A DNA stretch of 52,975 bases from a virus (lineage: Duplodnaviria > Caudoviricetes), in IMG/VR virus record IMGVR_UViG_3300046170_000181, positions 1 to 52,975 of that record; one strand, written 5' to 3'. A program made the position numbers and the translations under genes. How positions within the stretch are numbered: position 1 is the stretch's first letter; each line of letters begins with the position of its first letter. The notes under the pieces are model-generated. The model made no database searches, was not told where the DNA came from, and was given only the letters and a program-made list of their open reading frames with translations. This document shows, one piece after another, positions 17,078 to 17,236 of this stretch.

Positions 17078-17185
17078 ACAAAAAGACCCCCGGTGTTGTT
17101 CCCATAATGGGCACCGGGGGTTTAATTTTGCCAAATTAATGACAAGAGATCACCAAGAACGCGAAGGGGAGGAACCGTTCCTAGT
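17078..17185 (-). ncRNA. Candidate ~105 nt small RNA with an anti-Shine-Dalgarno loop
   Basis: Own promoter TTGACT-18-TATGAT (17192-17221), 10-bp stem with loop GUUCCUCCCCUUCG, second hairpin, intrinsic terminator, no plausible ORF. Confidence 0.65.
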
Positions 17186-17236
17186 TTAGGAATCATACAA
17201 TAGTCCCGCATAGTTAGTCAACTAGTAACAAGAAGC

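Follow-up and report, generated by a model that had tools for sequence, protein, structure and literature searches.

We describe a candidate family of phage-encoded small RNAs (sRNAs) located beside the tyrosine integrase gene in one clade of HMO-2011-type marine phages, a clade that includes CRP-3, CRP-212 and CRP-235 together with many uncultured relatives. The member that we examined is encoded in the window, by which we mean the whole of the IMG/VR virus record IMGVR_UViG_3300046170_000181, a contig of 52,975 bases that represents a complete viral record (99% complete by CheckV) and that groups, by gene order and by its best DNA and protein matches, with the HMO-2011-type roseophages CRP-3, CRP-212 and CRP-235. 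Here a unit of about 105 nucleotides (nt), situated between a homologue of the small phage gene gp01 and the integrase, is very probably a real RNA gene. The explanation that we favor, and to which we give somewhat better than even chances as a whole, is that it specifies a trans-acting sRNA, which would be transcribed leftward from its own sigma-70 promoter to an intrinsic terminator, and would display a single-stranded, C-rich anti-Shine-Dalgarno (anti-SD) sequence in the loop of a 5' hairpin. The mRNAs with which this loop would pair, at their ribosome-binding sites, are the phage's own: those of the integrase, the DNA polymerase and, in the lineage of the window, the primase. Such pairing would occlude the SD sequence and lower translation, as is established for alphaproteobacterial anti-SD sRNAs, and integration and replication functions would thereby be dampened or shut off.

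The unit is preceded by a sigma-70-type promoter on the minus strand (17221-17192), comprised of a -35 hexamer TTGACT at 17221-17216, an 18-nt spacer and a -10 hexamer TATGAT at 17197-17192 (10/12 matches). It stands back-to-back with a divergent, plus-strand promoter-like site (TTGACG-18-TATGGT, 17237-17266) upstream of the small open reading frame (ORF) orf63 and the integrase, and both members of this pair, which had been proposed in an initial annotation made from the sequence alone, were confirmed. The predicted transcript (minus strand, 17186-17078, about 105-109 nt) folds at minimum energy into a 5' hairpin, a second hairpin and a Rho-independent terminator. The 5' hairpin has a 10-bp stem, ACUAGGAACG/CGUUCUUGGU (17185-17176 with 17161-17152), which includes two G-U pairs and encloses the 14-nt loop GUUCCUCCCCUUCG (17175-17162), the proposed seed. 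The second hairpin (CUUGUC/GGCAAA..., loop AUUAAU) occupies 17145-17128, and the terminator, which corresponds to the inverted repeat I2, has its stem at 17121-17086 and its U-run at 17084-17080. The stem, exposed loop, second hairpin and terminator of the initial annotation were all reproduced in this fold, whose energy for the minus-strand RNA 17186-17070 is -41.6 kcal/mol versus -28.5 +/- 3.2 for shuffled sequences (z -4.1; 0/200 shuffles as good). The plus strand of the region folds more weakly (z -2.5; 5/200 shuffles as good), and the two G-U pairs of the 10-bp stem become mismatches on the opposite strand. The terminator is bidirectional, in that it also terminates the plus-strand gp01 homologue.

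No ORF of at least 40 amino acids (aa) occurs at the locus, in agreement with the earlier statement that it holds no plausible ORF. There is a 29-codon minus-strand ORF (17211-17122), which starts inside the promoter, upstream of the predicted transcript start, lacks an SD sequence and is not conserved; neither this ORF nor the bidirectionality of the terminator was named in the initial annotation. The presence of this frame, and of 22-28-codon ORFs over the same region in some relatives, might be taken to indicate a very small protein of 24-29 aa (minus strand, 17211/17196-17122), but this is extremely improbable. Neither candidate ATG has an SD sequence, and both precede the predicted start, in the region of the promoter hexamers; among 25 representative relatives, longest ORFs of 0 to 29 codons fall in different frames and specify unrelated peptides; and the covariation of the stems discussed below fits RNA structure rather than coding.

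A blastn search with 16680-17510 against phage records returned only a 24-nt chance match; as the sRNA region has diverged too far to be found by DNA search, the relatives were anchored on the integrase. With a profile built from four integrases, 167 relatives were recovered in IMG/VR and 80 loci retained (individual relatives are given below by their L numbers); the 74 upstream regions compared are those of the window, of three CRP phages and of 70 IMG/VR loci that have 450 nt or more upstream. In 51 of these 74 regions the minus strand carries, at 100-345 nt before the integrase start, the motif CCUCC[C/U] with a G-rich stem and a U-run after it. The 51 regions amount to 37 distinct sequences, with most of the elements lying 128-162 nt upstream of the integrase. 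The relatives share a plan of folding, in which a 5' hairpin with the C-rich motif in a 9-14-nt loop is followed by variable middle hairpins and the terminator; in CRP-3, L072, L073 and L080 the motif lies in the linker between two hairpins, and not in a loop. Although the scaffold varies between sRNA types, the C-rich motif remains unpaired. A promoter-like site just upstream of the first hairpin was present in 17 of 42 distinct relatives, versus 267 of 3000 control windows.

Two covariance models, R1 and R2, were built from 10 sequences and then rebuilt from 28. At E<0.01, R2 matches this place and strand in 54 of 83 sources, which bears out the conservation that the initial annotation had offered as a check. 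Its 38 best matches (E<=5e-10) are all at the sRNA place, and four matches with E<0.01 lie elsewhere. The models also recovered loci missed by the motif rule, with the loop variants CUUCUCCCAG, AACUCCCAG, CACUCUCCAGG and UCUCUCCUAG. In the structural alignment of the 28 sequences 95.2% of the pair cells are standard pairs, versus 74.4 +/- 1.5% after shuffling, and 83 cells are changed on both sides versus 22.5 +/- 4.3, a count that none of 500 shuffles reached, in a shuffle control that ignores relatedness. When the partners were slid against each other as a further control, only 40-53% remained paired. Of the seven base pairs in the seed hairpin six have undergone compensatory change, and the presence of 51 G-U cells identifies the minus strand as the one that folds. 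The locus and its relatives combine the features generally looked for in trans-acting sRNA genes, namely a promoter, an intrinsic terminator, the lack of a conserved ORF, compensatory structure and a single-stranded seed whose fit to the integrase and polymerase start regions persists through changes on both sides.

These data also bear on the alternative that the element acts as DNA or on the plus strand, as an operator, an arm-type site of the integrase or a duplicated "pseudo start region", with the SD-like words being direct repeats. Complementarity between loop and target does amount, on the plus strand, to direct repetition of an SD-like word; the element is situated beside the integrase, between back-to-back promoters; and the region of the stem holds the palindrome AGGAACCGTTCCT. 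Nevertheless, we consider this alternative highly unlikely: the 51 G-U helix cells and the U-tailed terminators belong to the minus strand only, with no T-run after the stem on the plus strand of the relatives; the stems co-vary with pairing kept, which is not required of a protein site; and downstream of the SD-like word the plus strand holds no conserved start codon or ORF. Furthermore, the window lacks another good copy of the palindrome (2 matches at <=2 mismatches, 1.9 expected), and the word TAGGAAC is not enriched (7 matches versus 5.8 expected). An operator composed of TAGGAAC half-sites and the palindrome AGGAACNGTTCCT was considered and rejected on this lack of enrichment.

The distribution of the element was also examined at 19 polymerase-anchored loci with enough upstream sequence. 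All five loci whose integrase is 40-53% identical to that of the window carry it, none of the nine with an integrase of 29-37% identity gave a model match, and the remainder comprise four loci without an integrase and one cut at its end. CRP-1 and CRP-207, in which the integrase occurs in another context, have no R2 match. The sRNA family goes with one clade of integrases. Among 185,579 species' genomes the integrase profile found only two loci and no lysogen context; one of the two is a 2.3-kb contig of a metagenome-assembled genome with the sRNA architecture (loop UUUCCCUCAUU), and the other is an integrase of 32% identity. Scanning viral contigs with the 14-mer of the loop gave more than 119 matches, and none of the 80 loci examined is related to the window by blastn.

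In Rfam no match reached the gathering threshold in the window, and only chance-level matches, none of them to RF02344, were obtained at E<=10 in 16900-17400; ten related loci gave none to RF02344 at E<=1, and a single sub-threshold chance match (rli41, E 0.51). No sRNA of HMO-2011-type phages or roseophages came up in a literature search, and the available portions of the papers on HMO-2011-type phages (PMC9038755, PMC6918029) mention none. The family is, by both the lack of an Rfam match and the lack of a literature report found, previously uncatalogued. Side observations on its composition include a word, UUGCUAGUG (CAUUGCUAGUG), in a hairpin or linker, which recurs in the sRNAs of types B and D and of L009-L011, L029-L034, L039 and L103, and which in L011 is complementary over 9 nt to the primase leader CACUAGCAA; this word might serve as an additional seed or as a site for a protein. 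In the window a similar hairpin, GUUCAUUUUAGCUAGUGAAC, and a terminator are located after the last of the rightward genes (31700-31780, plus strand).

Within the window, the loop is perfectly complementary over 10 nt to the SD region of the primase, CGAAGGGGAG (19727-19736, plus strand; ATG 19743), and over 8 nt to that of the DNA polymerase, GAAGGGGA (22703-22710, plus strand; ATG 22717), as had been claimed initially and as the exact occurrences confirm: CGAAGGGGAG is found in the window only at 17162 and 19727, and GAAGGGGA additionally at 22703. To these can be added a 6-nt complement in the integrase SD, AGGGGA (17492-17497, plus strand; ATG 17503). Among 12 start regions of the early region only those of the primase, polymerase and integrase have an SD of the GGGG type. 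When the 77 start regions of the window were ranked by duplex energy the primase came first (-20.6 kcal/mol), the polymerase fourth and the integrase fifth.

The principal evidence on targets comes from a test of cognate pairing across relatives, in which the unpaired stretches of the minimum-energy fold of each sRNA, extended by 2 nt on each side, were matched by their best duplex with the start region (-27..+6), and the null distribution was obtained by permuting the start regions among sequence clusters. For the integrase (22 clusters) the cognate duplexes gave -11.53 versus -9.81 +/- 0.35 kcal/mol (z -4.9; 0/20000 permutations as good), and for the DNA polymerase (18 clusters) -11.75 versus -9.96 +/- 0.41 kcal/mol (z -4.3; 0/5000). 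The primase gave a weaker signal (21 clusters; -10.92 versus -9.94 +/- 0.39 kcal/mol; z -2.5, p 0.009), and thyX, which belongs to the same operon, gave none (18 clusters; -8.40 versus -8.62 +/- 0.36 kcal/mol; z +0.6, p 0.72). After the clusters had been merged into 13-15 superclusters the integrase retained z -3.9 (p 1e-4; cognate better in 13/15), the polymerase z -3.3 (p 6e-4; 9/13) and the primase z -1.6 (p 0.06; 8/15), with thyX at z +0.3. Control windows inside the integrase coding region had z values of -0.7, -0.2, +0.7, -2.2 and -1.2, the 5' untranslated region of the integrase z +0.2 and reversed sRNA segments z -1.2, while reversed start regions gave z -1.8 for the integrase, -1.1 for the primase and -0.6 for the polymerase.

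These comparisons suggest that the start regions of the integrase and polymerase co-evolve with the sRNA family-wide, which is comparative evidence for pairing and not proof of regulation, and the strongest co-evolving target is the integrase start region, whose SD the initial annotation had not named. Of the two targets that it did name, the polymerase is upheld across clades (z -4.3, and -3.3 with superclusters), whereas the primase is limited to certain clades (z -2.5 and -1.6): clusters A1-A3, B3, C, E and F and the window show it strongly, and its start region would appear to co-evolve with the sRNA in the window's own lineage. That the integrase, polymerase and primase start regions of the phage are the true targets we regard as moderately probable.

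The longest perfect complements between the body of the sRNA and the start regions illustrate how the pairing is kept while the sequences change. In the window they measure 10 nt for the primase (CUCCCCUUCG with CGAAGGGGAG), 8 for the polymerase and 6 for the integrase. In L014/L018 the primase match reaches 12 nt (UUUAAGGGGGAA; loop UUCCCCCUUAAA in L014), with 7 for the polymerase (L014) and 6 for the integrase, and in L015 it reaches 14 nt (UUUUAAGGGGAAAA, loop UUUUCCCCUUAAAA), with 6 for the integrase. From L014 to L015 a run of C5/G5 has changed to C4/G4 on the loop and on the primase start region alike. L024 has complements of 9 nt for the primase, 6 for the polymerase and 9 for the integrase; L037/L038 of 9 for the primase, 6 for the polymerase (L038) and 7 for the integrase; and L009/L010 of 10 for the primase (GGGAACAAGA with loop UCUUGUUCCC) and 6 for the integrase. 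In L020/L021 the primase matches (10 nt in L020, 7 in L021) both lie upstream of the SD, the polymerase match is 7 nt (L021) and that of the integrase 8 (GGGGUAAC with loop GUUACCCC). Comparison of the window with type A shows pairing preserved in the shared core AAGGGG/CCCCUU, although the flanks on either side have diverged in both partners (CG...AG with CU...CG versus UUUU...GAA with UUC...AAAA). The covariation of loop and primase SD that the initial annotation had suggested as a check is present in the nearest relatives (L014/L018, L015, L024, L037/38 and L009/L010) and absent from CRP-3, CRP-212 and CRP-235.

Two further observations on start regions may be mentioned. At 19718-19742 the primase SD, GGGGAG, is flanked by the inverted repeat ATCGAA/TTCGAT, which could form a hairpin that displays the SD for loop-loop contact with the sRNA; the hairpin was set aside, as it appears in the centroid fold only and is unstable (z +0.3). 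The start region of a tail-fibre-like gene, CAGGGAGA, just before ATG-GCx-GGx-TAY, ranks first or second for the CUCCCUG seeds of CRP-235, CRP-3 and CRP-212 (minus strand, record coordinates 35147, 31306 and 34214, respectively). This gene was rejected as a conserved target, as the three CRP start regions are homologous and the window's own, CAGGAAGA, has no fit to its loop.

Several points weigh against the explanation proposed here. The 10-nt loop match of the window is not significant when taken alone: the three matches of GAAGGGGA compare with 1.37 expected and are reached by 15 of 100 shuffles, and loops in which CCUCC was kept and the flanks were shuffled find an equally good start region among the 77 in 215 of 1000 trials. 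By cofolding, which cannot model loop-loop kissing, the primase falls to 24th of the 77 start regions, with the polymerase 3rd and the integrase 11th. Across relatives, the clusters of the cognate test are related by descent, such that its p-values are not exact, and the control with reversed integrase start regions is not flat (z -1.8, and -2.1 with superclusters), for which reason the integrase signal may in part reflect composition. Clusters D, G, H, I, K and N show no primase signal or a reversed one, and neither the primase nor the polymerase SDs of CRP-235, CRP-3 and CRP-212 fit their own loops. The alignment that revealed the covariation was fitted to the model, and the window's own copy stands outside the 28 sequences; moreover, neither R1 nor R2 reports 17078-17186 of the window at E<=1. 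Finally, any anti-SD loop pairs with many SDs, so that specificity in vivo is here a prediction.

The window's copy is best viewed as a putative divergent member of the family, recognized by position, strand, architecture and motif and not by a scored match. It lies between the gp01 homologue and the integrase on the minus strand, with an exposed CUCC-type 5' hairpin and a terminator, at about 320-336 nt upstream of the integrase in place of about 130-160 nt, with the extra orf63 (17302-17493, plus strand) in between. By polymerase identity its nearest relatives are type A (70-74%) and type B (69%), the sRNAs of which have two C-rich loops, CCUCCC and CCCC(C)UU, and the single loop of the window, CCUCCCCUUCG, reads like both of these in one. 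By integrase the nearest are L009-L011 (60-62%), with a three-hairpin sRNA and the loops ACACCCCUCUAG and UCUUGUUCCCCUUUG. The 99.5%-identical contig L007 has no difference from the window across 16811-17714. Another view is that the locus is an ordinary intergenic region, in which the bidirectional terminator of gp01 happens to adjoin a hairpin and a promoter match that both arose by chance. The stretch 15500-20500 has no excess of promoter-like sites (8 found versus 10.0 +/- 3.3 expected), and both the insignificance of the target match inside the window and the failure of the covariance models to reach its copy speak for this view. It is already disfavoured, and in our estimate very improbable indeed, given that the same place, strand and architecture recur in dozens of diverged relatives with compensatory changes in the stems, that the fold has a z of -4.1, and that contigs of four seawater metagenome runs, a small sample compared at the contig level only, have no variant letter in 16932-17402 while the flanks vary.

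The closest known kind of RNA is the cuckoo/CcsR/ar14 group, which the phage RNA resembles in its presumed working while falling outside that family. According to the available portion of PMC4615179, cuckoo RNAs, which include RSs0680a-d/CcsR1-4 of Rhodobacter sphaeroides and C14/ar14/NfeR1 of rhizobia (Rfam RF02344), occur in Rhodobacteraceae and Rhizobiales, consist of 2-4 adjacent hairpins with loops carrying the CCUCUCCC-type CCUCCUCCC on stems that vary freely, and have a chromosomal context, CIN1, beside OG1, with co-transcription with RSP_6037 in R. sphaeroides. As far as this source extends, the points of likeness are the alphaproteobacterial setting, anti-SD loops of the CCUCC(UCCC) type on variable stems and the presumed action on ribosome-binding sites. 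The points of difference are several. The window has one C-rich loop (CCUCCCC), the loop of its second hairpin being AUUAAU, and in most phage relatives CCUCCC or CUCCC occurs a single time, some types having a CCCC loop in addition; the full CCUCCUCCC was seen, among the relatives examined, only in L062. The cuckoo Rfam model has no match in the window or in ten relatives, the genomic context is phage gp01, then the sRNA, then the integrase, and, unlike in cuckoo RNAs, the loops of the phage sRNAs co-vary with the phage's own start regions.

This resemblance raises the possibility that the RNA is real but that its main targets are host mRNAs, with the phage carrying a copy-cat of the host's CCUCCUCCC cuckoo/CcsR-type sRNAs, by which host translation or metabolism would be reprogrammed, and with the complementarity to phage genes being secondary. 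The core CCUCCC is that of the cuckoo family, which is common in Rhodobacteraceae (PMC4615179, in its available portion), to which the hosts of the CRP phages belong; L062 has the full CCUCCUCCC; and GGGAGG is rare in phage genomes (in CRP-235 there are two sites, one of which is the sRNA gene itself), leaving few perfect phage sites. Candidate sites in the 5' regions of the host, an RCA roseobacter, would be of the CAGGGAGG type. Host targets, however, would not make the loops fit their own integrase and polymerase start regions better than foreign loops do, nor would they yield 12-14-nt matches that change on both sides. From the phage sequences examined, we accordingly judge host mRNAs unlikely to be the main targets, though a role of this kind is compatible with the anti-SD sRNA acting on the phage's own genes.

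Small RNAs that control phage genes by base-pairing have precedents in c4 of P1/P7, CI of P4, OOP of lambda and sar of P22. Of these, c4 blocks a ribosome-binding site, and c4 and CI serve as immunity factors instead of or beside protein repressors. These RNAs are known to act on one neighboring transcript, either in cis-antisense or inside a common operon, and both c4 and CI arise by processing of longer RNAs. In contrast, the RNA of the window has its own promoter and terminator, and its generic anti-SD seed is predicted to reach the integrase at about 300 nt, the primase at 2.5 kb and the polymerase at 5.5 kb. In the RsaE/RoxS RNAs of Firmicutes unpaired C-rich loop motifs pair with the G-rich SD regions of several mRNAs; unlike the phage sRNA these are chromosomal, regulate metabolism genes, and are unrelated in lineage and sequence.

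In the surrounding region, genes of the DUF932 and GP88 families run leftward (14717-16677), followed by the small ORF homologous to gp01 of CRP-3, CRP-212 and CRP-235 (16854/16845-17060, plus strand; 68-71 aa, with 68 from the TTG at 16854), which is convergent with the sRNA and marks the conserved sRNA place between gp01 and the integrase. The rightward order after the sRNA is orf63, integrase, thyX, a small ORF, primase (19743), helicase and DNA polymerase (22717). No tRNA or tmRNA gene was found in a scan of the window. As a further observation on promoters, an extended -35-like word (TTGACGCGC.. or TTGACGTGCCAGTC) precedes both gp01 and the integrase in relatives (L009-L011 at ~1893 and 2424; L002 at ~195 with L005 at ~2897), and in the window (17237-17248) it precedes orf63 and the integrase; this suggests a shared early promoter or operator. 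The motif TTGACGCG likewise recurs upstream of the integrase in L009-L011.

The integrase gene (17503-18568, plus strand) is split by a frameshift into frames at 17503-18204 and 18239-18568. The contig L007 lacks base 18192 and thereby has an intact 354-aa gene, and the contigs of runs X3 and X12 also omit one base at 18192/18193, on account of which the frameshift is probably an assembly error or a rare variant. The helicase likewise appears frameshifted (20965-21774 plus 21746-22189, versus ~406 aa in the CRP phages), and a large tail-fibre-like gene on the minus strand, with a MAGY start at 1123, has a frame change and spans the contig ends (1-915 with 51376-52975; 794-1123). The window record may carry several indel errors.

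A probable attP core lies at 19499-19561, with GGTTCAAATCC on the minus strand at 19543-19553 and a tRNA-like core at ~19528-19561, 180 nt upstream of the primase; a minus-strand terminator (19516-19499) adjoins it. In the four metagenome runs the depth spikes at 287 to 2611 in the bin 19527-19627, and loose ends occur on both sides (~19523-19527 and 19561-19566), which fits a shared 3' part of a tRNA. CRP-3 integrates at a tRNA-Met gene, according to the available portion of PMC6918029. Because the att core is ~180 nt upstream of the primase, in a prophage the primase-polymerase block would be at the far end from the sRNA and integrase. Such a block would need its own control, which makes a role in lysogeny, as the initial annotation had imagined, plausible.

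With regard to function, we infer that the unit is expressed and that it represses rather than activates its targets. A search for RNA runs covering 16700-17700 returned none, a result that speaks neither for nor against expression. Hfq may assist, since the terminator has a U-tail, and the RNA might act either in the shut-off of early genes during lytic growth or in silencing within a lysogen. That its main role is to keep lysogeny is doubtful. A stronger form of this idea, in which the family provides the immunity or lysogeny regulator of integrase-bearing HMO-2011-type phages without a CI-like protein, is rather unlikely; here a constitutive anti-SD RNA would silence the prophage, and perhaps shut out superinfecting kin as well, by blocking translation of the integrase, primase and DNA polymerase. 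Among the 20 ORFs of the window scanned with Pfam, to which the check for a CI repressor was limited, no helix-turn-helix or repressor was found. Were this form true, the lineage-specific "code" of loop and SD would make the loop the determinant of immunity specificity.

HMO-2011-type phages are described as one of the dominant marine viral groups, and CRP-3 has been shown to integrate into its host; in their available portions the papers reporting this (PMC9038755, PMC6918029) do not address the control of integration or replication. The models R1 and R2 offer a signature of sequence and structure usable on metatranscriptomes, the natural compensatory pairs of loop and SD provide ready-made mutational tests, and homologues are carried by the cultured phages CRP-3, CRP-212 and CRP-235 on strain FZCC0040. 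An RNA regulator acting on the ribosome-binding sites of the integrase, primase and polymerase would constitute a testable control point between lytic and lysogenic growth in these abundant marine phages, and would extend the principle of alphaproteobacterial anti-SD sRNAs to a virus.

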